The translations under genes and the position numbers were made by a program. Positions 10,063-34,437 of a stretch of DNA of 64,000 nt are shown one piece after another. Below the pieces are notes generated by a model. That model made no database searches. It was given only the letters and a program-made list of their open reading frames with translations, and was not told the DNA's origin. The stretch is from positions 2,880-66,879 of the forward strand of contig JAKARV010000009.1 in NCBI GenBank assembly GCA_021819205.1. The letters run 5' to 3'. The DNA comes from Actinomycetes bacterium (GTDB lineage: Bacteria; Actinomycetota; Acidimicrobiia; Acidimicrobiales; Acidimicrobiaceae). Position 1 is the stretch's first letter. Each line of letters begins with the position of its first letter.

Positions 10063-12024
10063 TCATACCGAGGCGCCGACGATCAACCCCTCGAGTACCG
10101 CCTCCTCTACCGTGCGCGGCGCCATGCAGTCGCCAACGCCGTAGGTGGGAATGCCACTTGCTTGAAGCTCCGACAAAAGCTCGTCGCGAGATTGGCATCC
10201 GGTGGCGAGCACCGTGCAGCTGACGCCTTCGACGAGTACCGGCTCTTCGGTGAGAACGTGCTGGAGGTACACGGTATCGTCATCAACACCGTACAGCCGG
10301 GCCAAGGGAATGATCTCGATCTGCTGGCGGTGCAGATTTGCGAGGAGTCCATCCCGCACGTACTGCTGGAGCATCTCGCCAGGTGCGTATCCGGGGGTTG
10401 CCAGAGTGACTCGTTTGCCCTGCGCGGCGAGAAGTTGGGCTACGCCGATACCTACCCAGTCTGCCCTCCAATCGATCACCACCACTTTTTGATAAGTTTT
10501 TGCCTCTCCAGCGATTGCCGCCCAGGCGTCGATGACGGTGGGTGATCCCATAGTCGTCATTGGCGGCCAATAGGGCGTGGCCCCGGTGGCCACGATCACG
10601 GCGTCGGGGCTGAGAGAGTTGACCAGCGCCATGTCCGCGGTGGTTCGAGTTTTCGTGGTGACTCCCGATTGCGCTGCCTCTTTGATCAAATTTTCGGCCA
10701 CTACTGCAAACTCTTCCCGGCTCGGCAACCGCCCGGCGAGAAGAACTTGGCCCCCGAGTTGAGATTCAGCCTCGACCAGCGTGACCCGGTGGCCGCGATC
10801 GGCTGCAACTGCCGCCGCTTTGAGCCCGCCGGGACCGCCTCCGACTACCAGCACGCGCTTTGTTTTGGCGGCCGGCATGCGTTTCCCAAACTTCAATTCT
10901 CGTCCGGTCTCGGGATGCTGGATGCACGATATCGGATAGCCGGCGTGGAAGTGTCCGATACACGCCTGGTTGCAACCAACACAGGCACGGATTTTGTCCG
11001 GCGTTCCGGCAAAGGCAAGTGTTGGAAGCTGCGGGTCGCAGATGAGCGCGCGGGTCATGACGCAGGCATCGGCATCTTGGCGCTCGAGGATGCGCTCTGC
11101 GTCCTGCGGTTGATTGATTCGGCCTGCGATCATAACTGGCACGTCGACGAGGCCTTTGACTTGACGCGATACTTGGGAGACGTAGCCGTTAGCCCACCTC
11201 ATGTCGGGGACGATGTGGTCAGACCCGCCCAAGCTCGCCGAGGTGCCGGCGGTGACGCTTACATAGTCGACCAGTTTTTGTTTTGATAGAGCCTCCAACA
11301 CCTCCATGGCGATCTGTTCCGAAAGGCCGTTTGGGTCCCGTTCGCCGAGCGAGATTCGTATCCCAATGACTCCGGGGCTCAACTCCCCCCTCATCATCTC
11401 CAACGTCTCGGCAAGGAAACGCAACCGGTTCTCAGGCGTCCCTCCGTAGCCGTCGTTGCGGTGATTGATGAGCGGGTTGAGAAATTGGGATGGCAAATAG
11501 CCGTGGCTGGCAACGATCTCGACTCCATCCAAACCGGCCTTCGCCATACGGCGGGAAGCGGCGACGTATCCTACCTGAATTTCGCGGATTTCGCTGGTGG
11601 TGAGCGCCCGAGGCATTACTCGGAAGCGTTCATTGGGGACTGCTGACGGTGCCAACGCCACCGGAAGTGAACCGTCCTGAGACTCCATCACTTCCCTTCC
11701 AGGATGGAAAAGCTGTCCAAACAGCTTGGCTCCGTGGGGTTGGACGGCCCGCGCCAGCCGCTCATAACCGGCGATACACGCGTCGTCATTGGCCATGAGA
11801 ATGTGGGAGGTGTAGCGGGCCGATTCGCTAACCCCTGCCACCTGTATAACGATAAGTCCAACCCCGCCTTGGGCTCGAGCCTCTTGATACGCCACCAACT
11901 GGTCGGTGGGGCGACCGTCCTTTACCATAACGGTGTCGTGTCCGGATGACACTATCCGATTTTTCACCGTGATCGTACCAATGGTTAGCGGGGAGGCTAG
12001 ATGGGGGAACATCTCTTGGCTCAT
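10063..12024 (-). CDS. FMN / 4Fe-4S / FAD(NAD) flavoprotein of the 2,4-dienoyl-CoA reductase / amine dehydrogenase (Old Yellow Enzyme-fusion) family
   Basis: OYE-like N-terminal half, Cys cluster CVGCNQACIGHFHAGYPISC, then a GGGPGG dinucleotide fold. GAGGAGGAG lies 6 nt upstream of the ATG at 12024; the ORF opens at 12066. Confidence 0.8.
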   Translation of the reverse strand: MSQEMFPHLASPLTIGTITVKNRIVSSGHDTVMVKDGRPTDQLVAYQEARAQGGVGLIVIQVAGVSESARYTSHILMANDDACIAGYERLARAVQPHGAKLFGQLFHPGREVMESQDGSLPVALAPSAVPNERFRVMPRALTTSEIREIQVGYVAASRRMAKAGLDGVEIVASHGYLPSQFLNPLINHRNDGYGGTPENRLRFLAETLEMMRGELSPGVIGIRISLGERDPNGLSEQIAMEVLEALSKQKLVDYVSVTAGTSASLGGSDHIVPDMRWANGYVSQVSRQVKGLVDVPVMIAGRINQPQDAERILERQDADACVMTRALICDPQLPTLAFAGTPDKIRACVGCNQACIGHFHAGYPISCIQHPETGRELKFGKRMPAAKTKRVLVVGGGPGGLKAAAVAADRGHRVTLVEAESQLGGQVLLAGRLPSREEFAVVAENLIKEAAQSGVTTKTRTTADMALVNSLSPDAVIVATGATPYWPPMTTMGSPTVIDAWAAIAGEAKTYQKVVVIDWRADWVGIGVAQLLAAQGKRVTLATPGYAPGEMLQQYVRDGLLANLHRQQIEIIPLARLYGVDDDTVYLQHVLTEEPVLVEGVSCTVLATGCQSRDELLSELQASGIPTYGVGDCMAPRTVEEAVLEGLIVGASV

Positions 12025-12690
12025 CTCTTTCTCCTCCTCGTTTAGTAAGCGTTGCCAATCGGGCATGGGGTTTGTGGACGCTGCGAAATATCAAGAAGTT
12101 CTTGCGTTCGATCCGAAGCGGCATCGAGATCGATCAGACCAAAGGATCCAAGCGCGAATTCGTTGCCGGTCGGCGGCGGAAGGCGCAAGTAGAGTCTTTC
12201 CTGGGTGCACTTTGCTGTTTGACGTGCGCGCCAACGGGCTAAAACACGATCGGCCGTTGTCGGGCCGCACGTGAACCTTTTGTATTTAGGCGCCGTCATT
12301 GGCACTTCTCCCCGCCGGGCTCTCGGCGAGAGCCAATATTTAAATCGTTGTTCAATATTGTATAGTGCAAAATGCAGCCATCGTCAAGGCAGCCCAGGAC
12401 GGGTTGTGGCTGTCGAAGTTTTCCGCAACGGACTTTACTCTTGCCGGCAATGTTTTTTCCTTTTGCCTTGGCTAACTTCTTAATGTTGGCTCATAATCCG
12501 ATGGGGATGGTGCCTTGCCAATTGCGGCGAGTGGCCGTTTTTTGCCATCTGTTTTGCGCCAAGTGTTTCAACCGCGAAAACATTCAAGTTTTCAACAGCA
12601 AATGCTGCCAAACACGAGTAATGTAGTTGGAACCTAGCGTATTTCCAACGGAATACGTATGCCAAGAGCTGTTTTGGCGAGGGAGGGGGT

Positions 12691-23550: not shown

Positions 23551-24206
23551 GCGCTTCTTACCTCCCGAACCCTGGAGGCAAAAAGGCCACACAAAACCGT
23601 CTCCACCAAGATGACCAGGTAGAGCGGTAGCAGCTCTGGCGTGTCGGTGCCGGCGGTCACGCCATGGATCCAGGCCGCGAGGAACATGACTATAGCCAAC
23701 CGGTGAATCGAGAGCCAGCTCGGCCCCACCAACAAGCCAGAGAGGGCCGCCGAACCTCCAACGGCGAGTCCTAGGTAGAGAGCGGCAGTTCCAATAGCGA
23801 CAGCGAGCGGACGGTAGGTGGCCGAGAACGGGACGATGATCCCGATAAACCCCACTCCGGCGTACTTGTCGATCGCCAGGGTGAGTAGGTGGACCACCAG
23901 GAACGAGCCGCCGATCGCCGCGAGGATGCGGTGCAGCCGCAAGAGCGTTAGCTGGCTTATCCCGGCCCGGTAGAGCGGGATCTTGCCTCTGGCCGCAAAG
24001 CCCAGGTTGGTGAGGACCCAAAGTATGAGCAGAGTGGCGATTCCAAAAATCCGCCCAAGTTCCCAGGGGAGGAACTTCAATGGCAATGCCCCGATCACCA
24101 TTCGCTCGAAAACGTAGCCGAAGGCCGCCGCCGTCACCAGTGCGGAGGCGGCTGCAACGGTGGCCGGCCTGGGCTCTCGTGCCGGCTGGCTCAGCTCGCT
24201 AGCCAC
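23547..24206 (-). CDS. Stand-alone ferric-reductase-domain (FRD / MsrQ-YedZ-like) di-heme membrane protein
   Basis: 219 aa, about 6 TM helices. Two intramembrane His pairs have NOX/FRE-type spacing: HRILAAIGGSFLVVH (H-x13-H) and HRLAIVMFLAAWIH (H-x12-H). Confidence 0.65.
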   Translation of the reverse strand: MASELSQPAREPRPATVAAASALVTAAAFGYVFERMVIGALPLKFLPWELGRIFGIATLLILWVLTNLGFAARGKIPLYRAGISQLTLLRLHRILAAIGGSFLVVHLLTLAIDKYAGVGFIGIIVPFSATYRPLAVAIGTAALYLGLAVGGSAALSGLLVGPSWLSIHRLAIVMFLAAWIHGVTAGTDTPELLPLYLVILVETVLCGLFASRVREVRSA

Positions 24207-25117
24207 CTCAACTGGTCCTGCATCTGTGTGGAAAAGCGATAGCTCCCATCATCGAACACCCAGAAGGCCGCGACATTCTCCTCCTCGGCAATCTCGTTGA
24301 TCCGGTTTTGGCCGCTTAGAAACAAGGTCTTGGAGAGTACTTCGGCGCGTGCGGGGTCAGAATGTAGCACGGTCACCGAGAGAAGGCCTTCGCCTCCCGG
24401 AAGGCCGGTCGCCGGGTCGATGAGGTGGTGCACCGGGACTCCGCCTCGGCGCCAGCTGCGAAGTCGGATTGACGAAGTGGCGCAGCCGGCATCGTGGACC
24501 GCGACAATTGCAATGTGGCCGGTCCCGTTTGGATTTTCAATTCCGATCAGCCACTCGTCGGCGTCGGCTGGAGCTCCCTTTGCGTAGCAGTCTCCTCCGG
24601 CTTCGATCAGGAACGCCGACGAGTAGGTTCCGAGAGTTGTCGCTGCATCCCGTACCGCAAGCCCCTTCCCGATTCCGCCGAGATCGATTGGGTGGGATCC
24701 GACTTTAACGGACAAACTCCTGGCGTCGAACTCCGGGCTCCAAGTTGGAAGTGGATTGCGGCGATCGGGCACCATTGCGCCCTCCTCGTCGCCGACCTGG
24801 GAGAAGGTTTCAGCGTAGCCCAACCGGCACAGGTCTTCGAAAACCCGCGGATCAAAGATCTTCTGAGTCTCCAGATAACCTTCGTAAGCCTCTTTGATCG
24901 CGGTGAAGGTCAGTCGTGATACCCGATGCATGTGGGAAGGATCGTGGTTGATCTCCGAAAGTTCGCTGCTCTCTTTGAAGCGCGAGAGTGTGGCCTCGTA
25001 GCGCCTGAAGACCGATACCACTTCTGCTCCTTGCCACTCCTCGGTATCGCTTTCACTTGCATCTGCAATCAGGATGCTGATGTTCGAAGCCATCGCCTTG
25101 GTCTGGATCTTGATCAT
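24191..25117 (-). CDS. apbE: FAD:protein FMN transferase (ApbE family), no recognisable signal peptide or lipobox
   Basis: 308 aa. ApbE motifs DLGGIGKG, EAGGD and ATSSIRLR...VHHLIDPATGLP. The N-terminus MIKIQTKAMASNISILIADASESD is not signal-like. Confidence 0.85.
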   Translation of the reverse strand: MIKIQTKAMASNISILIADASESDTEEWQGAEVVSVFRRYEATLSRFKESSELSEINHDPSHMHRVSRLTFTAIKEAYEGYLETQKIFDPRVFEDLCRLGYAETFSQVGDEEGAMVPDRRNPLPTWSPEFDARSLSVKVGSHPIDLGGIGKGLAVRDAATTLGTYSSAFLIEAGGDCYAKGAPADADEWLIGIENPNGTGHIAIVAVHDAGCATSSIRLRSWRRGGVPVHHLIDPATGLPGGEGLLSVTVLHSDPARAEVLSKTLFLSGQNRINEIAEEENVAAFWVFDDGSYRFSTQMQDQLRWLAS

Positions 25118-25121
25118 CGGC

Positions 25122-25457
25122 CTACCCGAGTCCAGAAGCGCCGGTCGTGGCGTGGGCCGCGGGAGTGTTCACTGGGGGAAGGTTCGGCAGCGAGAAGTTG
25201 AGAGCGGATTTGCCTGCTTGGGGCGAGAGACTTTGGATGCTTGAGATTGCTCGAAGGTCCTGTTCAAGAAGGCGTTGGAGCTGGGAGACCTGAAGTTGCT
25301 GGGAGATGAGTGCGGCCTTGCGAATAGCAGCTGCGCGCTCCCGCTGAACCTGTGCCATCTGGGACTTTACCGGCCCCGCGGCAACTGCCACGCTTGCCGC
25401 AGCTGTTGCCGCAGCAAGCGTGGTGGGAACCCAGCGGATTAACGTTCCCAGTGACAT
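25122..25457 (-). CDS. Membrane-anchored coiled-coil protein with C-terminal ATTGASG tail (hypothetical)
   Basis: 111 aa from the Met at 25457, with AGGGAGG 7 nt upstream. One N-terminal hydrophobic helix, a Q/L-rich heptad-like segment, and the ending ...PAAHATTGASGLG. Confidence 0.5.
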   Translation of the reverse strand: MSLGTLIRWVPTTLAAATAAASVAVAAGPVKSQMAQVQRERAAAIRKAALISQQLQVSQLQRLLEQDLRAISSIQSLSPQAGKSALNFSLPNLPPVNTPAAHATTGASGLG

Positions 25458-25482
25458 AAATCTGCCTCCCTTCGCAGGGCCT

Positions 25483-26064
25483 TTAGTTGTCGCTGCTGGA
25501 GGATGAGCCGCCGTTGTCGCCGCTGCCCTGCTGCTGCCCATCTCCTGAGTGAGAGTCGGTGCTGGAAGTGCCGGAGGCGCCGGTGGTAGCGCTCACCGGC
25601 GGGGTAATGGTGTTGCTCGGTGTCGCCGCCAGGGCCTGCGCCTCCTGCTCCAACTGCGTCTGCTCTGCTGCAAGCTTCTGCGCCTCAAGCTGCAGGTTCG
25701 CCTCCTGCTGCTGGACGGTGGTGTTAGTGCTGGCGATCTTGGCGTTCTCCTGCGCCATCACCCCCTTCAGGCGCCCCTCCGCCGCGGCGATCTCGGCGTG
25801 GAGGCGTGCCTCTTGGGATTTGAGCGACCCTACGGACCCCGTTGCCGGAGTTGCCGGAGTTGCCGGGGTTGCCGGGGTTGCCGGGGTTGCCGGGGTTGCC
25901 GGAGTTGCCGGAGTTGCCGGAGTTGCCGGGGTAACCGCGATCTGGGAAGGTGGAGTTGTTGTGGCGGAGGTACTTGCCGTTACGTTCACTGCAGCCGCGG
26001 TTCCACCCGCCACCACGCCGCCAGCAGCCAGAAGTTTGATCAGCCACTGTATCTTTCCGGTCAT
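25483..26064 (-). CDS. Membrane-anchored/secreted protein: (PAT)x10 linker + coiled coil + ATTGASG-containing Ser/Gly-rich tail (hypothetical)
   Basis: 193 aa with AAGGAGAGG upstream of the ATG. N-terminal hydrophobic helix, 10 PAT repeats, Q/E/A-rich coiled coil, then ...PPVSATTGASGTSSTD.... Confidence 0.55.
   Translation of the reverse strand: MTGKIQWLIKLLAAGGVVAGGTAAAVNVTASTSATTTPPSQIAVTPATPATPATPATPATPATPATPATPATPATGSVGSLKSQEARLHAEIAAAEGRLKGVMAQENAKIASTNTTVQQQEANLQLEAQKLAAEQTQLEQEAQALAATPSNTITPPVSATTGASGTSSTDSHSGDGQQQGSGDNGGSSSSSDN
25841..25930. repeat. Tandem 9-bp repeat (gttgccggr) x10 encoding (Pro-Ala-Thr)10
   Basis: Ten consecutive in-frame units counted directly, with only the third-position a/g varying. 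Confidence 0.95.
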
Positions 26065-26319
26065 CGACCTCTCCTTTCGGTTGGATTTCGATGAATACAG
26101 CTTCGATGTCCAAGTTGAACTAAACCTAAGCTGACTATGAGAAAACTCTAATCTGGCATAAATTAGATCACGGATAGTGGCGAAATGTGCTCGCAGGTTG
26201 GGTGCAGGTTGAGGTATTTAGAAAAATTCCTCGATAAAGGCCGCGCACAAAACAAATTGAAAATCATTAAACGCTATAGAAAACTATGGTAGGGTCTAAG
26301 AATAGCCAAGGAGGGCAGA
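26065..26319. promoter_or_regulatory. AT-rich divergent control region between the redox/coiled-coil operon and the T4SS-like operon
   Basis: 255 bp, visibly less GC-rich than its surroundings. Both flanking genes have strong SD sequences. It contains a direct repeat CTAT(G)AGAAAACT at 26135-26147 and 26274-26285. Confidence 0.45.
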
Positions 26320-26607
26320 ATGACATGGATGTCACTAGATGTAAGCTTGACCCCCGATCCGAGCGCGTTGCCTGGCGGATCGATTTTGCAGCAGCTGGCA
26401 GACGGCATCGGAGGTTGGGCGCTGATTCTTGCGTTGGTCGGGCTGGTAGTTGGCGCGGCAACCTGGGCGCTGGGCGCTCACTCGCAGAACTACCAGCAGT
26501 CGTATCTGGGACGCAGGGCGGTACTGGTCTCGGTTGCGGCGGCGCTAATCATCGGGGCTGCTCCAGCGATCATAAACTTCTTTTTTCATCTGGGCCTTGG
26601 CGCGTAA
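26320..26607 (+). CDS. Small two-TM pilin-like membrane protein (resembles actinobacterial DUF6112 / VirB2-analog proteins)
   Basis: 95 aa with AAGGAGG SD. Pattern PDPSALPGG...(TM)...WALGAHSQN...GRRAVLVS...(TM)...INFFF matches my recollection of the DUF6112 family found at the head of actinobacterial T4SS clusters. Confidence 0.6.
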   Translation: MTWMSLDVSLTPDPSALPGGSILQQLADGIGGWALILALVGLVVGAATWALGAHSQNYQQSYLGRRAVLVSVAAALIIGAAPAIINFFFHLGLGA

Positions 26608-26610
26608 CGG

Positions 26611-27669
26611 GTGTTGAACAGCCTCTTCGGGATACCCCTGGCGGCCCTTGGGCGGGCACTCGTCTCGGTGGCCGCTGCTGCGGCGGGATCGTTTTTGACC
26701 CGCACAACCGTGGAGCTTGCCTCCTGGTTATTGAGGGAGATCACCCAAATTCTGCTAGCCCCGGGAGGACTGAACCTTGGTGCTGGATTTTTTGCACGCG
26801 CCTACTTGGGTTCCGCCAAGCTTGCGGCAGAACTCGCCCTTCCCGCGCTGTTGCTGGCGGTGGTGGCCACCATTCGCAAAGGATCACTCGCGGGCCTAAC
26901 CGAAATCCTGCTCAGGGTCCCGGTCGCGTTCCTCGTGATCGGTATTGCACCTGCGGTCGTGGAGCTGTTGGCGCGAGTCGTGGACGCCGCGGCAGGTACC
27001 GGCCTGGTGGGCATCTCTGCGCTCCCGCGGTTAGCTGACCTACTCCAGGCTGGAATCGGCAACCCGATGCTGGGCCCGGTCGTTGGAACGTTTCTAGCGG
27101 CCATCGCCCTGGCCGGGGCGGTGCTGATCTACGTCGAGTTGATCGGGAGGGACGCTGCACTTTACCTATGCCTGTCGATGCTACCCCTCACTGCTATCGG
27201 GATAATTTGGCCAGCCCTGAGGCACTGGTTTTCGAAGACGCTCAAGCTGATCGCCGGTCTGCTGTTGACCAAACTCGTGCTTGCGGCGGCGGTGGGACTC
27301 GGTGCGGGCGCTATTGCCGGCGCTGGGGGTGGTACCGCCGCCGAAGCCGCCGCCGGAGCTGCCCTGATCATCGCCGGGGCGTTTGCGCCGCCGGTTGTCT
27401 TTAGGGTTGTCGGCTTTTCGGAGCTTGCTCTCGTCGAGCTCTCCGGCTCGATCGCCAAGGTAGCTGCCTCCCGTACCGCGGGCGGCGCGCAGCGGGCGAT
27501 CTCGGGAGCGATGGCACTCCCCGAATGGATGGAGGTCTCCCGCCTCTCCTCGCAGCCGTCGCGGCTTCCCTGGTACTCGGGGTATCCGCCCCCATCTGAG
27601 CTGGCAGAGCGGGCGAAGAGCGATCCTTGGATGCACGAGTTTCTTTACCGGGGGCGGAAGCGGGGATGA
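26611..27669 (+). CDS. Polytopic membrane protein, VirB6/TrbL-like
   Basis: 352 aa with at least 6 hydrophobic helices and a Gly/Ala-rich segment. The GTG start lies 3 nt after the upstream stop. Its position in the cluster matches TrbL/VirB6. Confidence 0.5.
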   Translation: MLNSLFGIPLAALGRALVSVAAAAAGSFLTRTTVELASWLLREITQILLAPGGLNLGAGFFARAYLGSAKLAAELALPALLLAVVATIRKGSLAGLTEILLRVPVAFLVIGIAPAVVELLARVVDAAAGTGLVGISALPRLADLLQAGIGNPMLGPVVGTFLAAIALAGAVLIYVELIGRDAALYLCLSMLPLTAIGIIWPALRHWFSKTLKLIAGLLLTKLVLAAAVGLGAGAIAGAGGGTAAEAAAGAALIIAGAFAPPVVFRVVGFSELALVELSGSIAKVAASRTAGGAQRAISGAMALPEWMEVSRLSSQPSRLPWYSGYPPPSELAERAKSDPWMHEFLYRGRKRG

Positions 27670-28859
27670 GCGAACGCATCCTGTTGGGAACGCCCGCCCA
27701 GGGAACCAGGATCCTCGGCATCCCCCTTGCCCGGGCATCCGCGGGCTCGGCTGCCGTTGCCAGCGCTCTCGCCGGTTGGGCGGGGTACGGTACCGCTGGC
27801 CTCCTTTTTGCCCTTCTCGTTATCGGGGCCGGTGCACTTGGGCTTGCCTACTTGCACCGATCAACGATCTATCCGGGGGCGTGGTTGCGACTGGTGGCCA
27901 AACGGCATCGCGGTGGCTTTGTCGATGACGGTGGGTACCTGGCTACGGTGGGCACGGCACGAACGGTACTGGCCTTTCGGCTCGAGCTCGCCACGCCGAG
28001 ACTATTCGGCCGAATTGAAGGGGAGGAGGGGGTGGACTGGGTCAGGCTGTTAACCGTGACCGCCAAACTTGCCGCTGGATTCCGTGGCGGCGCCAGGGTG
28101 GTGCTGTCGACCAGCATCTTGCCCTCGCTCCTCCGGTCGTCTTCTCCACCACTGCTCGAACCGGTGTACGAGGTAGTGTCGCGGCTAACCCTCTCACCGC
28201 GCTCAAAGCTGAACCGAACGGAACTAGAAAGGCTGGGTACCTGTGCGCAGCAGCTCTCCGCGCTCTCTTCCGAACTCGCGACGGTGCGCCTCGTGCGCCT
28301 CGAAGGTGGTCGCGCGCTTCTCGAGAGCTCGGTTGCTTCTCTTATTACCGGGGTGAATTCGGAAATTGTCGAGAGGGAGGACCGCCTCGAACTTGCGGGG
28401 TCGGTGGCATCGGTTCTAATGATCAAGGGGTGGGGGGAGGCTTCGCCACCACCTGGCCTATTGGCTCCGTTGTTCGCAGCCACTCCCCCGGCACGGTTGA
28501 TGGGGGTAGTGCTGGATCCGCTCGAGGCGAGAAGGGCGTTCCGCACCGTTGGGAGAGCTCGTGCCGAGCAGGAGGCGGACTCCCGGCTCTTGAGGCAGCA
28601 CGGCTACCTGGAGCGGCTGGCGGAGAGTGCTCGCACAACCGCCGCGGCGCTGCAGGAGGAGCGGCTTCTCGCCGGGTATGCCCTTGCCCGGTTTCAGATC
28701 GTCTCGGTAGTGCTTGCCCCCAACCGGGCCGGTCTGCGCAGAGAGCTTCGGGAGATGATCGAACTGGGGCTCCGCTGCAACGTCGAGTTCGCCGTGGCGC
28801 TCGGGCACCAGCGGGAGTGGTTCGAGCTGGCAACCGCGGGGGTTGAGGGATGGAGCTAG
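27666..28859 (+). CDS. TM-hairpin protein with a VirB4 N-terminal-like domain (SCO6880-family-like; VirB3/VirB4N analog)
   Basis: 397 aa from the Met at 27666 (ATGA overlap). The N-terminal double TM is followed by about 330 soluble residues with no Walker motifs. It sits immediately upstream of the ATPase. Confidence 0.5.
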   Translation: MSERILLGTPAQGTRILGIPLARASAGSAAVASALAGWAGYGTAGLLFALLVIGAGALGLAYLHRSTIYPGAWLRLVAKRHRGGFVDDGGYLATVGTARTVLAFRLELATPRLFGRIEGEEGVDWVRLLTVTAKLAAGFRGGARVVLSTSILPSLLRSSSPPLLEPVYEVVSRLTLSPRSKLNRTELERLGTCAQQLSALSSELATVRLVRLEGGRALLESSVASLITGVNSEIVEREDRLELAGSVASVLMIKGWGEASPPPGLLAPLFAATPPARLMGVVLDPLEARRAFRTVGRARAEQEADSRLLRQHGYLERLAESARTTAAALQEERLLAGYALARFQIVSVVLAPNRAGLRRELREMIELGLRCNVEFAVALGHQREWFELATAGVEGWS

Positions 28860-30022
28860 CGTGGCAGGCTACAACGGACGCGCTCGCCAGGATACCGGTT
28901 CCGACGGCGAGCCCGCTGACGGGAGGAGAACGCAACCCGCTCGGGTTGCTCGCCACCGGCGGGACTTTCTGCTTCGACCCATTCGACCTCTACGCCCGGG
29001 GCCAGATTACCAACCCAAACCTTCTCGTTCTTGGCGATGTCGGACGGGGCAAAAGCACCATGGTGAAGACGTTTCTTCATCGCGGCCTTGGTGAAGGCCA
29101 GTCGCTGGCTATCGTCGATCCGAAGGGAGAGTACCGGGAGCTTGGAAAAGTTTTGGGGGCGACTTGGCTCGCACCGGGCGATACTGGCGGGATCGATCCG
29201 TTTGCCGGATATGGTTCGAGCCCGTCGGAGGTGGCAACTGCGGTATTGGCGTTTATATCGTTGGCGCTTGGGCGCGATCCCACCGATGTCGAAAAGGCGG
29301 TCGCGGCCGCGATAGCACGCCATCTCGCCGCCGAGCGCCGACCCCCGAGTATTCGGCACCTCATCCACCTCTGTGGCCGTCCCAGCCTGGTAGGGGCGAT
29401 GGTGCCAACCATTCTCCGAGGGGAGGCGGAACGGTTGATGGCCGCCATGGGGATGGACCTCGAGCGGGTGGTAACGGGAGACCTCGCCGGTCTGTTCGCC
29501 GTCGATGGCAGGACGAAGCCGCTACCGGAGCGTGTGGTGATCGATCTCGGGGCAGTGGGGAGCGGGGAGCTTGGAGCGCTCGCTACTGCCGCAATCTTGC
29601 GGAGCCGGATCGCTGATCTGGCCCTAAGGCGCATTGGTGCCGGTTATGTGGTTCTGGACGAGGCATGGTCGGTGCTGCGCGACGGGAAAAACGCCGCCTC
29701 GATACGTTCTTTGCTCAAGCTTTCGCGAGCTTACGGCGCTTCCGTGATCGCGGTGACCCATCGGCTCTCGGATTTGAGTTCTGGCGCAAGGGAACTGGTC
29801 CGAGAGTGCGGAAGCGTCTCCCTCTTCTCTCAAGGGATCGGGGAGGCAGCGGAACTCCAGGAGTGGTTCGGATTTGATCCGCTACGTTGCAGCCTGGCCT
29901 CCGATCTTCCGCGGGGGAGGGCGATCTGGCTCTTGGGGCGGCGCGAATTCCTGGTAGACCACGTGGTGAAGCCGTCCGAAGCCGGCATGGTCGATACCGA
30001 CTCGCGGATGGTTGCGCGATGA
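28850..30022 (+). CDS. VirB4/TraC-type secretion ATPase (ATPase domain only)
   Basis: 390 aa. Walker A GDVGRGKST, Walker B YVVLDEAW, then VTHRLSDL. It overlaps the upstream gene by 10 nt. Confidence 0.75.
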   Translation: MELAWQATTDALARIPVPTASPLTGGERNPLGLLATGGTFCFDPFDLYARGQITNPNLLVLGDVGRGKSTMVKTFLHRGLGEGQSLAIVDPKGEYRELGKVLGATWLAPGDTGGIDPFAGYGSSPSEVATAVLAFISLALGRDPTDVEKAVAAAIARHLAAERRPPSIRHLIHLCGRPSLVGAMVPTILRGEAERLMAAMGMDLERVVTGDLAGLFAVDGRTKPLPERVVIDLGAVGSGELGALATAAILRSRIADLALRRIGAGYVVLDEAWSVLRDGKNAASIRSLLKLSRAYGASVIAVTHRLSDLSSGARELVRECGSVSLFSQGIGEAAELQEWFGFDPLRCSLASDLPRGRAIWLLGRREFLVDHVVKPSEAGMVDTDSRMVAR

Positions 30023-31239
30023 TTGCGCTCCTCTTGCTGCTGGTTCTGGTGGCGGCGGGGGTAACGGTCGGCCGGGACGGCAACTTCCGACACTCTCCGA
30101 ACTCTCGCCGGCTCTCCCCCGGCGATGGCCGGCGTCTTCACCGGTGGCGTTTCGGGTCGCCGACGCATTTTTCCCACCCATCGTGCGATCTGAGAATCGC
30201 CGCCGGGAGGCGGGAGATCCGCTTGGACTCCGAGTCCTCTCTCCTGGTGGTTGGACCCACCCGATCGGGAAAGACCCGGTCGGTGGTAGCCCCGAACTTG
30301 ACGCGGTGGAACGGCCCGCTCCTCTATGCGTCGGTCAAAGACGAACTGCTGAACGAGGAGGTGTTATCGGCGCGGTCGGCGTTTGGAGCGGTGTACGTGC
30401 TTGGGCCTTCCCCGCGCGCTAGCGCCTCGTGGTGGCCGGCTCTCGAAGCCAACTCGGCTGCCGCAGCCCAAAGGATGGCGAACATCGTAATCTCGGTTCA
30501 CGGCGGGAACGGAATCGATGGGACCGAGACCCGGTTCTGGTACGGGCTGGCAGAGCCGGTCCTGGCCGGCCTGCTCCGGGCGGCCAACCTCGCGGGGATT
30601 CCCGAGTCCGAAGTCGCTTCGTCGCCGGCTCTCGCCGAGCGTCTGCTGGAGAAGGCCGGAGAAGGGCAGTTGGCGTCGGAGGTAGCGGGCGCAGGTGGGC
30701 TTGACCAGAGGACCCGAAGTTCGGTGCTGCTCACAGTGAAGCAGCTGCTCGACCCGCTCTCCCGGATCGAGCAGCGCGGGCCGGCGGTAGCGCTCTCGGA
30801 TCTGCTGCCGGGGTCGGTCCTGCTGGTAGGCTCGATCGGCCAGCAACAGGAGGCGGCGATCTACCTCTCTACCTTCATCTCCGCCTACCTCCGGACCGTT
30901 CTTGAGCCCGGAGCCGGGGCGGCGCGGCTCCTTCTCCTCGATGAGGCGGCGCACCTCTCGCGGGTGCCGGAGTTGGCGGCGGCCGCCTCAGTCGGAATCG
31001 GCCTCGGGATCAGGATGGTCACGGTGGTCCAAGATCTCTCGCAGTTGGCAGCGCGTTACCGGGATGGGTGGCGCTCCATCGTCAGCAACCATACCGCGCA
31101 GCTTTTCCTGGGAACCGGAGGCGACGGGCTGACGCGCGACTACCTGACTCAAGCCTTTGGCGGAGATCCGCCGAACGGCAAAATCCTGCTTGAGAGGAGG
31201 AGACGGCCGTCGGTGATTTGGGAGCTACGCAAAGCTTAG
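30019..31239 (+). CDS. Type IV coupling protein (VirD4/TraG-like, TraM-recognition-domain type)
   Basis: 406 aa from the Met at 30019 (ATGA overlap). N-terminal TM MIALLLLLVLVAAGV, Walker A GPTRSGKT, Walker B LLLLDEAAH. Confidence 0.75.
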   Translation: MIALLLLLVLVAAGVTVGRDGNFRHSPNSRRLSPGDGRRLHRWRFGSPTHFSHPSCDLRIAAGRREIRLDSESSLLVVGPTRSGKTRSVVAPNLTRWNGPLLYASVKDELLNEEVLSARSAFGAVYVLGPSPRASASWWPALEANSAAAAQRMANIVISVHGGNGIDGTETRFWYGLAEPVLAGLLRAANLAGIPESEVASSPALAERLLEKAGEGQLASEVAGAGGLDQRTRSSVLLTVKQLLDPLSRIEQRGPAVALSDLLPGSVLLVGSIGQQQEAAIYLSTFISAYLRTVLEPGAGAARLLLLDEAAHLSRVPELAAAASVGIGLGIRMVTVVQDLSQLAARYRDGWRSIVSNHTAQLFLGTGGDGLTRDYLTQAFGGDPPNGKILLERRRRPSVIWELRKA

Positions 31240-31252
31240 GTTCGGGTGCTCC

Positions 31253-31648
31253 GTGCCGATGTCATTCTCCATGATCGAACAAGATCCAGGTATCGTCGAG
31301 GCGAACCTCCTTTTGGCACAGTTGGAGGAGGCGCTCACCGAGATGGAGAGGGTGGTCTCCGAAGACCAGTACGCCCAACTCGCGAGGGTTTCGGCGCAGG
31401 TTGAGGCGGTCGTGGCCGGGTTGAGCCGGCTGAAGATCGGAGCCGAAGGTAGCGATTCGGCAGTCGAGCAGCTCCGCGAGCGGCATCACCACCTCGCCAC
31501 CAGGGCAAGCGGCTTGGCCGCCGCTTGCTTCTGGCGCTCCCTGCTGGTATCGAACCTGCTCCGCGACCTAGGACTGGATTTGGGCATCTACGGAAGGGAT
31601 GGGCTGATCGAGCCCCAAGGCGTGCACTCTGTAAGCGAGAACGCATGA
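31253..31648 (+). CDS. FlgN-like flagellar export chaperone (putative)
   Basis: 131-aa helical, acidic protein. The call rests on its position directly upstream of flgK (ATGA overlap), as in flgN-flgK-flgL operons; no strong motif was seen. Confidence 0.4.
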   Translation: MPMSFSMIEQDPGIVEANLLLAQLEEALTEMERVVSEDQYAQLARVSAQVEAVVAGLSRLKIGAEGSDSAVEQLRERHHHLATRASGLAAACFWRSLLVSNLLRDLGLDLGIYGRDGLIEPQGVHSVSENA

Positions 31649-33027
31649 GCGGTGGCTCCCTGTACATAGCGCTCTCCGGGCTAGAGGCTCAGCAGGCAGC
31701 GCTGCAGGTCGTCAGCGAAAATGTCTCCAACGCCAACACGCCGGGGTACTTGGCCGAGTCGACCAATCTGGCTAATCTCCAGGTGGCGGGGAGCCCAATC
31801 GGAAGCGGCGTTACCGTTGCGGGAATAGTGCAGTCGAGCAGCACCTTCGCCAAGCAAATGGAGCTCCAGGCTTCCGCTTCGAACTCCTATGCCTCCCAGC
31901 TCCAGTCGTTGCTGTCGAGCGCGCAGAACTTTTTCATGGAGCCGTCGTCGTCTGGGCTATCTGAACAGATGAGCACGATGTGGAACTCATTTTCTTCGGT
32001 GGCGAACGACCCTACCCAGACGGGTCCGCGGATGCAGGTGGTCGCGAACGCCACCGATGTGGCGAACGCCATCAATCAGGCCGCAACCGGTTTGACAAGC
32101 CTCTTCAACCAGACGGCCAGCGCCATCGGCAGCCAGCTCCAGACCGTTAACCAGCAGCTATCGGACGTTGCCACGCTCAACCAGCAGATTGCCGCGCAGT
32201 CGGGGAGCCAAGGAGGGGCGAACTCGCTGATAGATCAGCGAAACCAGCTTTTGAACCAGCTCACTTCGGAGATTGGAGTCACGGTGTCGCCTGCCGCAGC
32301 CGGACAAGTAAACGTGCTTTCCGGAGGCATCGCTTTGGTCCAGGGTTCCCAAGCGGAGCAGCTCACCTACACTGCTGGAAGCGGATCCCCGCCGAGCACG
32401 CCGAACACTGCATCGGTATCGCTCGTCTCGAGTGGGACTGTGCTCCCGGTTGCTTCGGGGCAGGTGGGGGCGGAGCTGACCGTCTTGAACTCCAACCTGC
32501 CGACCTACGGCAACTACCTCAACCAGCTCGCCACGAGCTTGGCAAGCCAAGTAAACCAGCAGCTGGCAGCGGGAGAGAGCACGACCACTTCGGGTACCGG
32601 CTCCCAGGCGGGGATTCCGCTCTTCGTTGGGGCTGGGGGATCGCCAATCAACGCGTCCAACATCGAGGTGAACTCGCAGATAGCGAGCGACCCGATGCTG
32701 ATTGCGGCTTCCGGGAACCCATACGCCGCTGCCGATGGCAGCAATGCCCAGGCAGTTGCCAATCTCCAGACCCAGCCCACCGGACCCAACGCCCTCTGGT
32801 CCCAGATCAGCGGATCCGTGGGAGTGGACGTCGCCAACTCGCAAACCCTTGCCACCAGCGCCAACTCGGTCTACCAGCAGGCGTACGGGCAAGAGCAGGC
32901 GGTCAGCGGCGTTAACGTAAACGCCCAGCTGGTCAACATGGTGAACTACCAGAACGCTTACCAGGCCGCCGCCAAGTTGATCGGTACCATCTCCCAGACC
33001 CTCCAGTCCCTGATCCAGTCGGTATAG
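31645..33027 (+). CDS. flgK: Flagellar hook-associated protein 1 (FlgK)
   Basis: N-terminus MSGGSLYIALSGLEAQQAALQVVSENVSNANTPGY and C-terminus VNMVNYQNAYQAAAKLI are canonical FlgK termini. Confidence 0.9.
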   Translation: MSGGSLYIALSGLEAQQAALQVVSENVSNANTPGYLAESTNLANLQVAGSPIGSGVTVAGIVQSSSTFAKQMELQASASNSYASQLQSLLSSAQNFFMEPSSSGLSEQMSTMWNSFSSVANDPTQTGPRMQVVANATDVANAINQAATGLTSLFNQTASAIGSQLQTVNQQLSDVATLNQQIAAQSGSQGGANSLIDQRNQLLNQLTSEIGVTVSPAAAGQVNVLSGGIALVQGSQAEQLTYTAGSGSPPSTPNTASVSLVSSGTVLPVASGQVGAELTVLNSNLPTYGNYLNQLATSLASQVNQQLAAGESTTTSGTGSQAGIPLFVGAGGSPINASNIEVNSQIASDPMLIAASGNPYAAADGSNAQAVANLQTQPTGPNALWSQISGSVGVDVANSQTLATSANSVYQQAYGQEQAVSGVNVNAQLVNMVNYQNAYQAAAKLIGTISQTLQSLIQSV

Positions 33028-33037
33028 GAGGACCGAA

Positions 33038-33943
33038 ATGCTGCAGATCCCGTCCGAGCTAGCGCTATCTTCGGCGATGGCAAACTCGTTGACCAACTAT
33101 CAGAACCAGCTCAATCAGCTGGAGATCACGCTCGCCCAAGGGCAGAACATCAGCCAGCCGTCGGACAACCCCAGTGGCGTGGTCGCCCTCGGAAACGCCA
33201 CCGCATCCCTCAGCGCCTACCAGCAGTTCGCCACTAACATCAAGACCGGCGAGACCGTAGCATCGCTGGCCAACTCCTCGCTCAACCAGGCCGTCAACTT
33301 GGTACAGCAGATCCGGTCGGCGATGATCCAGGTGGGTTCGCCAGGAGTTACCGCCTCCTCGGCAGCCGGGATCGCGTCGCAGATCTCGGGTCTGGAACAG
33401 TCGTTGCTCGGCGTCGCCAACACGACCTATCTTGGGAACGCGATCTTTGCCGGAACCAGCGGCGCGGCGGTAGCCTACTCCCAGCCAGGCGGCAGCGGCA
33501 CTGCGGTCAGTTACAATGGCAACTCGACTGCGACCGAGGTGGCGGCGGCGCCGGCGCTCTCGATCGCGACGTCGGTTACCGATCCGTTTGGAGTGACTTC
33601 AGCTTCGGGAGGGGTCTTTGCCGCCATCAACCAAACGCTTTCGGACATCTCGAGCGGAAACTACTCCGCGGTTACCAGCAGCGACTTGAACTCGGTCACG
33701 ACGGCGCTCGGCAACCTTACCGACCAGGCCGCCAAGGCTGGGGTCAACTACAGCCAGTTCCAGTTGATGTCGAACCAGGTCTCGGCGGCGGTCACCAGTA
33801 TCACCGGCCAGGTGGCATCGATCCAGAATCTTGACTATGCCTCACTTACCACCCAGTACCAGCAGCAGTTGAACAACTACCAGGTAGCGCTGTTTGCCGC
33901 CTCCAAGGTCGCACAGCCGTCGCTGGCGAGTTATTTGCCCTAG
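33038..33943 (+). CDS. flgL: Flagellar hook-associated protein 3 (FlgL)
   Basis: 301 aa. Flagellin-like N-terminus (...LAQGQNISQPSDNPSGV...) and C-terminal helical region; follows flgK. Confidence 0.85.
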   Translation: MLQIPSELALSSAMANSLTNYQNQLNQLEITLAQGQNISQPSDNPSGVVALGNATASLSAYQQFATNIKTGETVASLANSSLNQAVNLVQQIRSAMIQVGSPGVTASSAAGIASQISGLEQSLLGVANTTYLGNAIFAGTSGAAVAYSQPGGSGTAVSYNGNSTATEVAAAPALSIATSVTDPFGVTSASGGVFAAINQTLSDISSGNYSAVTSSDLNSVTTALGNLTDQAAKAGVNYSQFQLMSNQVSAAVTSITGQVASIQNLDYASLTTQYQQQLNNYQVALFAASKVAQPSLASYLP

Positions 33944-33981
33944 ATCCAACCGTACGCAAAACGATGCAAGGAGAGTATGCG

Positions 33982-34437
33982 ATGAAGGTTCAAGAGGAGA
34001 GCGCGGCAACCGCCCTCTCGCTTCCACTGGCGTTCCCGATCGGCCTGCCGGGATTCGAGACGTACCACAGCTTCCACCTCGTGGGTCTCGGGCCGGCGTA
34101 CGGCCCTTACCTGGGTTTGCGCTGCGCAATCGACGAAGGGCCTACTTTCGTTGTGGTTCAGCCGAGCGAGATCGGGATCACGCTTGAACTAGAGATCGAC
34201 GACTTCCACCAAGCACTGCTCGGAATCAAGGATGCCTCCGAAGTTCTGGTAATGCTCATCGCGACCTTGCGCGAGGAGAAAGCCTTCCCTACGGTCAATA
34301 CCCAGGCTCCGCTGGTGATCAACGTCACCAACTGGAAAGTTGCCCAAGTCTCCCAGTCCAACGCCGAGTACCGGTTGGACCAGGAGGCAGAGGTAGCGTT
34401 CTACGACGCGGAACGGGCTATTGCTGCCCTTCGGTAG
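33982..34437 (+). CDS. fliW: Flagellar assembly factor FliW (CsrA antagonist)
   Basis: LAFPIGLPGFE...FVVVQP...INVTNWKVAQV pattern. AAGGAG lies 8 nt upstream of the ATG at 33982. Confidence 0.85.
   Translation: MKVQEESAATALSLPLAFPIGLPGFETYHSFHLVGLGPAYGPYLGLRCAIDEGPTFVVVQPSEIGITLELEIDDFHQALLGIKDASEVLVMLIATLREEKAFPTVNTQAPLVINVTNWKVAQVSQSNAEYRLDQEAEVAFYDAERAIAALR

Follow-up and report, generated by a model that had tools for sequence, protein, structure and literature searches.

The closest described relative of the locus considered here is the chromosomal, co-transcribed, and lineage-conserved cmdABCDEF operon of Streptomyces coelicolor (SCO4126-4131; Xie, Zeng & Qin 2009, PMC2782261). Within it, cmdB resembles the VirB4-like ATPase SCO6878, cmdC resembles SCO6880, and cmdD resembles SCO6881; the operon is related to plasmid transfer genes, yet it is dispensable for plasmid transfer, and its phenotype is developmental, involving aerial hyphae, chromosome segregation, and actinorhodin (PMC2782261). 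Deletion of cmdA (SCO4126), which would come last in the operon if transcription proceeds from SCO4131 to SCO4126, gave no visible phenotype (PMC2782261), and this was counted against the reading of the present operon as a translocon. Given the precedent of cmdABCDEF, the idea of a domesticated T4SS is not wholly new, and in Patescibacteria a chromosomal T4SS likewise serves a host function and not the spread of an element (PMC12102498; PMC12857230).

The present locus lies in a window of 64,000 nucleotides (the whole stretch of DNA analyzed) and comprises five ORFs from the ORF list of the window, together with the region upstream of them and the flagellar genes that follow:

26065-26319, + strand: AT-rich divergent intergenic region, presumed promoter region of the operon (sequence reading)
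26320-26607, + strand: 95-aa two-TM DUF6112 protein, VirB2/TrbC-pilin-like (Pfam, hydropathy)
26611-27669, + strand: 352-aa polytopic membrane protein, VirB6/TrbL-like (Pfam, hydropathy)
27666-28859, + strand: 397-aa TM-hairpin protein, VirB4 N-terminal-domain-like, shortened SCO6880-family member (NCBIfam, alignment, Foldseek)
28850-30022, + strand: 390-aa soluble P-loop ATPase, VirB4 C-terminal domain (Pfam, PDB profile match)
30019-31239, + strand: 406-aa VirD4/TraG-type coupling protein (T4CP) with a single N-terminal TM segment (Pfam, hydropathy)
31253-31648, + strand: 131-aa helical protein in the FlgN position, a flagellar gene outside the T4SS core (position, conservation)
31645-34437, + strand: flgK (31645-33027), flgL (33038-33943), and fliW (33982-34437) (Pfam on called genes)

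The five ORFs, of which the second begins with GTG, are joined, from 5' to 3', by a 3-nt gap, an ATGA, a 10-nt overlap, and a further ATGA, and the gene calls on public contigs carrying the window sequence were identical. The original prediction, made from the letters of the window, had given the same co-directional genes, sizes, and junctions, and re-reading of the ORFs matched it exactly; the motifs it had named, GDVGRGKST and VLDEAW in the ATPase and GPTRSGKT and LLLLDEAAH in the coupling protein, were present and conserved in relatives, with the Walker and catalytic motifs of both proteins intact. The GC content was not anomalous. A strong RBS, AAGGAGGG, was located at 26308-26315 ahead of the DUF6112 gene, and this site as well as the 5' ~95 nt of the intergenic region were conserved in the relative L012 (79% identity) despite a coding dS of ~1; a scan revealed no consensus sigma-70 promoter.

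The 95-aa protein, which has two hydrophobic segments, matched DUF6112 above the Pfam cut-off (38.6 bits vs. 25) and TrbC/VirB2 below the cut-off of that family (21.4 bits). Its gene was the most conserved of the operon, with 95% identity and a dN/dS of 0.043 relative to L012, and local identity of the protein was 76-87% in other Acidimicrobiaceae and 38-75% in the outgroup. The 352-aa protein contained seven hydrophobic segments (dN/dS of the gene relative to L012, 0.14) and matched TrbL slightly under the cut-off (23.3 bits vs. 25.9, E 6e-5); TrbL_4 was matched by 6 of the 30 members of its family, and one outgroup orthologue gave a weak match to SCO6881_fam. The VirB6-like and VirB2-like assignments, which are near or under the family cut-offs, were counted against the translocon reading.

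The next two proteins are two halves of one VirB4 encoded by two genes. The ATPase matches a VirB4 structure at the profile level, the fold matches of the 397-aa protein are to TrwK/VirB4, and a natural fusion is known (P0175, in which an SCO6880_fam region of 316 bits precedes a VirB4-type ATPase). In the 397-aa protein, a single N-terminal hydrophobic hairpin region (residues 35-63) was found, and the SCO6880_fam match covered only C-terminal residues 251-392 (32.7 bits vs. the NCBIfam cut-off of 60). Full-length SCO6880 proteins, including L089 (219 bits to SCO6880_fam), aligned with it over its entire length, and the short-form relative P0125 exceeded the same cut-off with 84 bits. The AF2 model of this protein was weak (pLDDT 54.5, pTM 0.49); the best 14 Foldseek matches of this low-confidence model in the PDB were all TrwK/VirB4 (E 1e-8 to 1e-6), and nothing else was matched at E below 1e-6. 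The 390-aa ATPase had no hydrophobic TM segment and matched AAA_10 (34.9 bits) and P-loop_TraG (32.7 bits) above the Pfam cut-offs, while the VirB4, TraC, and CD1110 models matched it only through their C-terminal parts. Its family profile matched PDB 4AG5, the VirB4 C-terminal domain, over the full length (E 1e-29), as well as TrwK residues 446-740; a weak CedB match was also obtained (E 2e-6), and Walker A and Walker B were invariant in 20 relatives. The dN/dS values relative to L012 were 0.19 for the 397-aa gene and 0.13 for the ATPase gene. What had been described as a TM-hairpin protein and a separate Walker ATPase was refined to the N- and C-halves of a single VirB4.

The 406-aa T4CP exceeded the Pfam cut-offs for T4SS-DNA_transf (64 bits), TraG-D_C (58 bits), and TrwB_AAD_bind (46 bits) and scored 77 bits with the CD1115 VirD4-like model; relatives share its conserved Walker A, Walker B, and QDxxQL motifs. 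Two stretches present in outgroup orthologues are missing from it, a ~40-aa insertion close to the C-terminus and a portion of the membrane region at the N-terminus; the dN/dS of its gene relative to L012 was 0.19. In the relative L013 the T4CP gene was frameshifted, so that the protein may be dispensable there, or the frameshift may be an assembly error. Thus, the T4SS core proposed originally is upheld by the HMMs, the 4AG5 and TrwK/VirB4 matches, and the P0175 fusion; among the families originally suggested, DUF6112 and T4SS-DNA_transf scored over their cut-offs, whereas TrbL and SCO6880_fam remained under theirs.

The operon is flanked by genes of metabolism (ABC transporters, ApbE, urease) and of motility (FlgK, FlgL, FliW, CsrA, CheAWBR), as had been noted. 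The late flagellar genes flgK-flgL-fliW follow the operon directly and co-directionally, in an order common to all flagellated relatives. The 131-aa gene starts 13 nt past the stop of the T4CP gene and shares an ATGA with flgK; its product had no family match in HMM searches but has conserved counterparts in Acidimicrobium and Ferrimicrobium relatives (C-terminal motif CFWRS..NLLRDLGLDLGIYG), and the Ferrithrix-group protein at the equivalent position matched Pfam FlgN (25 bits). In L013 this gene was lost along with flgK and flgL. No terminator-like site was found between the T4CP gene and the flagellar genes, and the two operons may be co-transcribed; the T4SS operon, lying directly upstream of flgN-flgK-flgL-fliW, may be expressed together with these late genes. 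Pfam annotation of the genes over ~78 kb, reaching from ~10 kb ahead of the window to ~4.5 kb beyond it, showed no relaxase, integrase, Rep, or ParA; the window contained no tRNA or tmRNA, and no att-like direct repeats were found around the cluster. The lack of a relaxase, integrase, Rep, ParA, tRNA, and flanking repeats had been noted for the window and held over the annotated sequence. Nor were a VirB8/TcpC-like protein, a peptidoglycan hydrolase (its absence from the operon had also been predicted), or an adhesin found in or near the operon, which was counted against a complete wall-spanning channel and leaves such a channel putative only.

The five genes were found in unchanged order, with the same flagellar/chemotaxis block after them (flgN-flgK-flgL-fliW/csrA/cheAWBR in the named genera), in A. 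ferrooxidans DSM 10331, Ferrimicrobium acidiphilum, and Ferrithrix thermotolerans, as well as in several MAGs, at an ATPase identity of only 35-41%; the chromosomal context is thus the same in three named genera and a number of MAG lineages. All five ORFs were intact at the same chromosomal position in at least 10 lineages from three genera, and the syntenic loci formed one clade in the tree. The upstream arrangement in Acidimicrobium ferrooxidans, Ferrimicrobium, and Ferrithrix was SerRS…FUR<RR<HK<, whereas in the window and L012 the upstream side was rearranged and only the downstream neighbors were kept; L013 retained the five-gene operon without flgN, flgK, and flgL. Divergence of the operon proteins tracked that of FlgK (pairwise identities, Spearman rho 0.63-0.83). 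The dN/dS between the window and L012 was 0.04-0.19 for the operon and 0.06-0.15 for flanking genes, and by this estimate the operon is under purifying selection. A longer orthologous operon was detected at the SerRS-RR-HK position in ~30 other Acidimicrobiales species, and its ATPase was conserved like SerRS (55-84% vs. 54-82%, rho 0.56); orthologues in other Acidimicrobiales also adjoin P450 and ROK genes, a non-flagellar context. All five window proteins were shorter than their outgroup orthologues. The window operon belongs, in shortened form, to a chromosomal family that extends across the Acidimicrobiales. A paralogous chromosomal "type B" locus, with a MobF/TrwC relaxase divergent from the five genes and lying among housekeeping genes, is found in other Acidimicrobiales.

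According to these comparisons, it was concluded that the operon is probably a chromosomally fixed, vertically inherited, and minimized T4SS of the actinobacterial SCO6880 type and not an ICE or its remnant, because the chromosomal context is shared at 35-41% identity, the proteins co-diverge with FlgK, selection is maintained, and mobility genes are absent. The same evidence sustains the original view of a domesticated chromosomal machine. A working mechanism can be deduced from what homologous T4SS parts are known to do. The VirB6-like protein, being polytopic, would form a membrane platform or channel. The 397-aa protein, combining a VirB3-like TM hairpin with the VirB4 N-domain, would dock the VirB4 C-domain ATPase, which is translated separately, and the two halves would be kept equimolar by the 10-nt overlap of their genes. 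The DUF6112 protein would act as a pilin-like subunit extracted from the membrane by VirB4 into a short conduit or pilus, and the VirD4-type hexameric ATPase would recruit a cytoplasmic macromolecule and feed it outward. In Acidimicrobiaceae, the operon has become shorter and has come to lie immediately ahead of flgN-flgK-flgL-fliW. DNA or a nucleoprotein is tentatively favored as the cargo, a protein being less probable and a non-secretory, Cmd-like role less probable still; plasmid-borne relatives of the operon were counted towards DNA, as were the MobF relaxase of the "type B" locus and the SLP2 transfer genes.

Export or conjugation of host chromosomal DNA, with the relaxase and oriT elsewhere in the genome and Hfr-like or Neisseria GGI-like donation as a host trait, is possible but somewhat unlikely. 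The T4CP keeps its TraG-D_C (relaxosome-recognition) region under selection, the sister "type B" locus bears a relaxase, and homologous genes of plasmid SLP2 are required for conjugal transfer (PMC2782261); however, no relaxase was found within the ~78 kb here or within ±10 kb in A. ferrooxidans and other loci of the clade, and there is no hydrolase or VirB8-like part. Only one A. ferrooxidans ATPase of this family was present among the homologues listed, a weak argument that no second locus linked to a relaxase exists there. It is unlikely that the operon is a T4SS that secretes proteins or delivers effectors on contact, or a pilus/adhesion device, co-expressed with late flagellar genes: the lack of a nearby relaxase, the extreme conservation of the pilin-like gene (dN/dS 0.04), the 13-nt, terminator-free spacing from flgN-flgK-flgL, and the lifestyle-essential chromosomal T4SSs of monoderm Patescibacteria (PMC12102498; PMC12857230) are consistent with it, but no conserved candidate effector or immunity genes adjoined the operon at the loci compared, and the non-flagellar orthologues and L013 show that the operon does not require the link to flagellar genes.

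An intracellular or envelope function like that of Cmd, supporting chromosome segregation or cell division without secretion, appears improbable, even though Streptomyces cmd mutants show segregation and septation defects with plasmid transfer unchanged (PMC2782261) and the ATPase of the orthologous operon in other Acidimicrobiales is conserved like SerRS. The likeness to cmd is one of family description, and the retained pilin-like protein and T4CP point to transport. Acidimicrobiaceae are unicellular rods without sporulating hyphae. That the five genes are a novel accessory of flagellar assembly is highly improbable: they adjoin flgN-flgK-flgL-fliW co-directionally, with no intervening terminator, in every flagellated clade member, but all five proteins have T4SS homologies, orthologues in other Acidimicrobiales adjoin P450/ROK genes, and L013 retained the operon without flgK and flgL. 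Least probable of all, and largely refuted, is an ordinary ICE or a decaying remnant that lost its relaxase and integrase while the T4SS genes drift to pseudogenes, since, although actinobacterial conjugative plasmids and ICEs carry the same protein families, all five proteins are shortened, and the T4CP of L013 is frameshifted, the ORFs are intact at an equivalent site in at least 10 lineages, dN/dS is low with invariant Walker motifs, and co-divergence with FlgK is accompanied by no borders, tRNA, or mobility genes.

Among known systems, the chromosomal T4SS reading preferred here shares VirB4 (split in the window), a VirD4 T4CP, and VirB6- and VirB2-like membrane proteins with R388 Trw and Agrobacterium VirB; it differs from the canonical VirB/VirD4 set in being without VirB1, B5, B7, B8, B9, B10, and B11, in its monoderm host, and in having VirB4 as two polypeptides. 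SCO6880-type T4SSs of plasmids and ICEs (SCO6871-6884, SLP2.19-23, and the Iamia sp. SCSIO 61187 plasmid) carry the same DUF6112, TrbL-like, SCO6880-family, "ATP-binding protein", and TraG/VirD4 components, but their proteins have only 26-34% identity to those of the window, whose operon is syntenic across genera; the Iamia genes lie amid an IS3 transposase, toxin-antitoxin genes, and a toprim protein, whereas the window has no mobility genes. The Patescibacteria T4SS is likewise host-encoded, lineage-wide, monoderm, and equipped with pilin genes (PMC12102498; PMC12857230), although its loci include VirB1-, VirB3-, and VirB8-like parts and several pilins and belong to epibionts, in contrast to five genes in free-living acidophiles. 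Helicobacter ComB and archaeal Ced/Ted are also domesticated minimal sets with a small two-TM pilin-like protein, a polytopic protein, and a VirB4/HerA-like ATPase. They are not known to have a VirD4 coupling protein, unlike the window operon, in which the conserved T4CP points to export of a cytoplasmic substrate and not to uptake. Compared by family description, cmdABCDEF is, like the window operon, chromosomal, built from the same actinobacterial families, and free of a relaxase; it differs in having six genes and a mycelial, sporulating host, whereas the window operon has five genes, is joined to flagellar genes, and encodes proteins much shorter than typical SCO6880-type proteins.

The window operon comprises five genes, with membrane topology taken from hydropathy:

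26320–26607, + strand: pilin-like protein, 95 aa; two TM segments
26611–27669, + strand: VirB6-like protein, 352 aa; seven hydrophobic segments
27666–28859, + strand: VirB4-N, 397 aa; a single hydrophobic hairpin region close to the N-terminus
28850–30022, + strand: VirB4-C ATPase, 390 aa; zero hydrophobic segments
30019–31239, + strand: coupling protein (T4CP), 406 aa; N-terminal TM

Genes 1 and 2 are separated by 3 nt, genes 3 and 4 overlap by 10 nt, and the other two junctions are ATGA; the first gene was preceded by a strong RBS (AAGGAGGG). The window sits on a MAG contig of ~67.6 kb and is spanned by a 100.5-kb contig of a sibling assembly; gene calls for the five ORFs were identical on the public contigs carrying the window sequence. 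The ORF reading and the public gene calls matched the co-directional ORFs, sizes and junctions of the original prediction, and its topologies (a two-TM pilin-like protein, a polytopic VirB6-like protein and a TM hairpin in the 397-aa protein) agreed with hydropathy.

By its VirB4 and VirD4 proteins, the operon is a type IV secretion system (T4SS) derivative. The T4CP scored above the cut-offs of T4SS-DNA_transf (64 bits), TraG-D_C (58 bits) and TrwB_AAD_bind (46 bits), and its Walker A and Walker B motifs were kept in relatives. The 390-aa ATPase exceeded the cut-offs of both AAA_10 and P-loop_TraG, and the VirB4, TraC and CD1110 models aligned with it only through their C-terminal halves. The profile of 20 ATPase relatives, in which the Walker A/B motifs were invariant, matched the crystal structure of the VirB4 C-terminal domain over its full length (4AG5, E = 1e-29) and also residues 446–740 of TrwK; these matches and the HMM scores bear out the Walker ATPase and T4SS coupling protein recognized earlier from motifs. 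The pilin-like protein exceeded the cut-off of DUF6112 (38.6 bits), and its two-TM topology was compatible with the sub-threshold matches to TrbC/VirB2 (21.4 bits, cut-off 27.9) and T4SS_pilin (14.6 bits). The VirB6-like protein reached 23.3 bits with TrbL, slightly under the cut-off of 25.9; TrbL_4 was matched by 6 of 30 members of its family, and SCO6881_fam weakly by one outgroup orthologue, that is, one of the longer orthologues from other Acidimicrobiales. Its family profile had no matches in the PDB, and the AF2 model built from the single sequence was too poor to use (pLDDT 44, pTM 0.21). Of the family assignments proposed for HMM verification, those of VirB4-C, VirD4 and DUF6112 stood above their cut-offs, and those of TrbL and SCO6880_fam remained below.

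The VirB4-N domain is contributed by the gene upstream of the 390-aa ATPase. The 397-aa product of this gene matched NCBIfam SCO6880_fam (NF042935) at 32.7 bits through its C-terminal part only, the curated cut-off of 60 bits not being reached, whereas the outgroup orthologue and the short-form relative P0125 scored 219 and 84 bits, respectively. With full-length SCO6880 proteins, it aligned end to end with internal deletions, and it can be regarded as a divergent, shortened SCO6880 member by descent, not by the curated threshold. Word-indexed searches returned two homologous proteins for the single sequence and four for the alignment; the AlphaFold model was weak (pLDDT 54.5, pTM 0.49) because the alignment was shallow, no deep alignment being obtainable. 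The top 14 Foldseek matches of this model in the PDB were all TrwK/VirB4 of R388 (E = 1e-8 to 1e-6, TM 0.40–0.46), and matches below these were worse than E = 1e-4; the SCO6880-type alignment profile searched against PDB sequences gave coiled-coil noise only. An exhaustive HMMER search identified P0175, a fusion protein of 928 aa with a complete SCO6880 region (residues 12–503, 316 bits) and, after it, an ATPase of VirB4 type (residues 455–898), in which the alignment of full-length VirB4 models begins within the SCO6880 part. As this fusion shows, pairs of SCO6880-family and ATP-binding proteins in Actinomycetota are split VirB4s. Given the alignment, the Foldseek matches and the P0175 fusion, the 397-aa and 390-aa proteins (787 aa together) are the two parts of a single VirB4 whose genes overlap.

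The ATPase homologues nearest to that of the window were found in a relative at 79% identity, followed by those of Ferrimicrobium at ~40% and of Acidimicrobium ferrooxidans DSM 10331 at 38%. The five genes occurred in one order in the window, the 79% relative, Ferrimicrobium, A. ferrooxidans, Ferrithrix thermotolerans DSM 19514 and additional MAGs, and downstream of them these relatives had genes for a small protein, FlgK, FlgL, FliW, CsrA (opposite strand), CheA-W-B-R and a GntR regulator. The comparison of distribution and synteny proposed with the original prediction thus revealed a context common to the Acidimicrobium, Ferrimicrobium, Ferrithrix and MAG lineages. On the upstream side (window 24191–26064 compared with L011, L013, L016, L018, L019–L021, L097 and L098), FUR<RR<HK< was present in all loci except the window and the 79% relative, as was SerRS where the contig extended far enough, whereas the window lineage had NuoF-like, membrane-protein and ApbE genes and those of two small secreted coiled-coil proteins. 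SerRS…ADH<FUR<RR<HK< probably represents the ancestral upstream neighbours, replaced in the window lineage; the divergent two-component system, a possible regulator of the operon elsewhere, therefore does not adjoin the window operon.

It should be noted that one of the two small proteins, a TM/coiled-coil protein of 193 aa (25483–26064, − strand) divergent from the operon, contains at 25823–25957 a 9-nt tandem repeat, GTTGCCGGR, of about 11 units, which on the − strand codes for a (Pro-Ala-Thr)n linker. The copy number varies among sibling MAG assemblies (193 aa vs. 172 aa, i.e., 63 nt or 7 units), and this protein and the adjoining 111-aa protein were confined, among the compared loci, to the window lineage and the 79% relative. 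A weak IcmG/DotF match of the 193-aa protein (E = 0.02) was dismissed as coiled-coil or low-complexity noise.

In the NJ tree of ATPase and T4CP, the Acidimicrobiaceae-type loci formed one clade, and pairwise identities of the T4SS proteins followed those of FlgK (Spearman rho 0.63–0.83, 28 non-independent pairs). Comparison of the window with its 79% relative, at a dS of about 1, gave the following dN/dS values, the pilin-like gene being the most strongly constrained of the operon:

pilin-like: 0.04
VirB6-like: 0.14
VirB4-N: 0.19
VirB4-C: 0.13
T4CP: 0.19
flanking genes: 0.06–0.15

The shared cross-genus context, the single clade, the co-divergence with FlgK and the low dN/dS point to an operon inherited vertically under purifying selection, in keeping with the domesticated chromosomal machine that had been proposed. 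In L013 (GCA_973533195.1), the T4CP gene (11184–12385) was frameshifted into parts of 260 and 140 aa, and flgN-like, flgK and flgL were absent, with fliW and csrA retained; the frameshift reflects either genuine T4CP decay that followed motility-gene loss or an error of assembly.

The window operon lacks the features that define an ICE or a conjugative plasmid, namely, a relaxase, an integrase with att sites or a tRNA, and a patchy, discordant distribution. No relaxase, integrase, Rep or ParA families were found among the Pfam-annotated genes, which span roughly −10 kb to +68.5 kb, no tRNA in the window and no direct repeats bracketing the operon. The GC content of the operon did not depart from that of the remainder of the window, and the surrounding genes were for transport, the metabolism of amino acids and CoA, ApbE, urease, flagella and chemotaxis. 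Family annotation together with the tRNA and repeat scans upheld the absence, already remarked from the sequence, of mobility genes, tRNA, flanking repeats and a hydrolase in the operon, and the Pfam-annotated gene lists agreed with the metabolism and motility flanks described then. Of the relaxase, integrase and att repeats just outside the window that had been named as speaking against domestication, no relaxase or integrase was seen among the annotated genes from ~10 kb before to ~4.5 kb after it. The reading of the locus as an ICE or an ICE remnant is rejected in view of the vertical inheritance under purifying selection. A VirB8-like protein and a peptidoglycan hydrolase are usual in monoderm conjugation systems; neither a VirB8/TcpC-like scaffold nor a VirB1-like hydrolase was found in the five proteins or the genes within ±10 kb, and the loci of the relatives were likewise without them. 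No adhesin was encoded in the window operon.

When one genome was scanned for each species, no fewer than 521 ATPase relatives were found, and nearly all of the top 80 came from Acidimicrobiales. Sorting the neighbours of the best relatives by ORF clustering and family searches revealed two recurrent chromosomal contexts, A and B. Type A (about 30 loci) had the order AhpC, ABC transporter, SerRS, RR<, HK<, the five T4SS genes, then P450 and ROK, with larger proteins (~511 aa for SCO6880, ~442 aa for the ATPase and ~590 aa for the T4CP), and its ATPase was as conserved as SerRS (identity 55–84% vs. 54–82%, rho 0.56). Since the upstream neighbourhood is common to type A and Acidimicrobiaceae, the window operon is a type A orthologue in which every gene has been shortened. 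The conserved + strand ORF clusters u272, u113, u302 and u137 upstream of the outgroup operons had no Pfam matches and were judged to be shadow ORFs opposite HK/RR. At the type B loci, of which there were about 20, these five genes lay between sigma-70/LPG-synthase and murT/gatD, with a 747-aa MobF/TrwC relaxase (199 bits) divergently transcribed from them; an integrase was not seen in these loci:

L044, 4135–6378, − strand: type B paralogous locus, MobF/TrwC relaxase divergent from the T4SS genes
L023, L027, L029, L039, L040, L047, L048, L070, L078, L079, L081, L093 and others: further type B loci

The type B clade was nested inside type A (NJ tree of ATPase and T4CP), and type B looks like a relaxase-bearing conjugation system that is also chromosomally fixed. 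Plasmid-borne relatives were few and distant (12 records, identity 26–34%); on an Iamia plasmid, the T4SS genes were found amid an IS element, toxin–antitoxin genes and a toprim protein. The operon is a T4SS derivative of five genes, fixed in its lineage, in which VirB4 is split, and it is orthologous across Acidimicrobiales.

The Acidimicrobiaceae operon is fused to a late flagellar gene block. In the window, co-transcription of the operon with flgN-like, flgK and flgL is possible, since only a 13-nt gap separates the T4CP gene from the flgN-like gene and the scan detected no terminator-like site between the T4CP gene and the flagellar genes; otherwise, the promoter/terminator scan and sigma-28 consensus search of the operon region provided nothing useful. 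The 131-aa protein in the FlgN position (31253–31648) had no detectable family, including in FlgN, FlgM and PDB searches, and carried a strongly conserved C-terminal motif, CFWRSxLVxNLLRDLGLDLGIYG; the Ferrithrix group had in the same position a 156-aa protein with a weak Pfam FlgN match. The flagellar link is not obligatory: type A has no flagellar neighbours, and L013 retains the operon, albeit with the frameshifted T4CP gene, without flgN, flgK and flgL. In the type B loci L047 (15–1200) and L093 (13–900), FlgL-like and FliW-like genes were located upstream of the T4SS genes at a distance of ~6.5 kb, a second and independent case in which this T4SS family lies near late flagellar genes. Beyond the che genes of the window, the 40.9–43.9 kb region (L009 3065–6401) contained genes for two small proteins lacking annotation, for a stand-alone response regulator and for a glycosyltransferase of 669 aa that carries TPR-like repeats; these may be further motility or flagellin-glycosylation genes.

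Judging from the known roles of homologous T4SS parts, the five proteins would form a cytoplasmic-membrane translocon with the VirB6-like protein as the platform, in which the halves of the split VirB3/4 ATPase would be held equimolar by the 10-nt gene overlap. A VirD4 hexamer would recruit the substrate from the cytoplasm, and transport would therefore be outward. The conjugative ancestry, the TraG-D_C region and the relaxase in the paralogous type B suggest DNA as the cargo, and the absence of a relaxase nearby and the Streptomyces precedent suggest protein export or a Cmd-like cell-biological role. We consider it rather unlikely, though conceivable, that the family is a conjugation-derived apparatus of the Acidimicrobiales core genome that serves the host, with a built-in ability to pass chromosomal DNA, or a protein signal, from cell to cell or to release it, of which one paralogue keeps MobF and the relaxase-less Acidimicrobiaceae locus is wired into the late flagellar operon, with transfer competence expressed together with motility. 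For comparison, conjugation of pLS20 depends on flagellar rotation (PMC11730352).

The five-gene machine is a stable, selected part of the chromosome common to a family of acid-mine iron oxidisers, including cultured type strains, and its set of pilin-like, VirB6-like, split VirB4 and VirD4 proteins may be the smallest T4SS set kept by selection. The cultured strains open the question of the role of a host-owned T4SS in a Gram-positive cell, and the idea is raised that Acidimicrobiia exchange DNA or proteins via a host-encoded system, possibly coordinated with motility.

To our knowledge, the T4SSs known in monoderm Actinomycetota belong almost exclusively to plasmids and ICEs, and the DNA-uptake derivatives ComB and Ced, which also serve for comparison, have no coupling protein, whereas the T4CP is conserved in the window operon. 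Literature searches found no description of such a system in Acidimicrobiia, Acidimicrobium has no entry in the supplementary data of Guglielmini et al. 2011, and no chromosomal actinobacterial system of the window-operon type is mentioned in a T4SS review from 2025 (PMC12857230). Another comparator is the chromosomal T4SS of Patescibacteria (PMC12102498; PMC12857230). The closest described system is cmdABCDEF of Streptomyces (SCO4126–4131), the likeness resting on published family descriptions and on the SCO6880/6881 family matches of the window operon family. Cmd is a chromosomal, co-transcribed operon in which cmdB, cmdC and cmdD resemble SCO6878, SCO6880 and SCO6881 as well as the transfer genes of plasmid SLP2, and its deletion affected aerial hyphae, septation and chromosome segregation and left plasmid transfer unaffected (PMC2782261). 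Cmd is the only studied chromosomal relative, and its developmental phenotype is unexplained.
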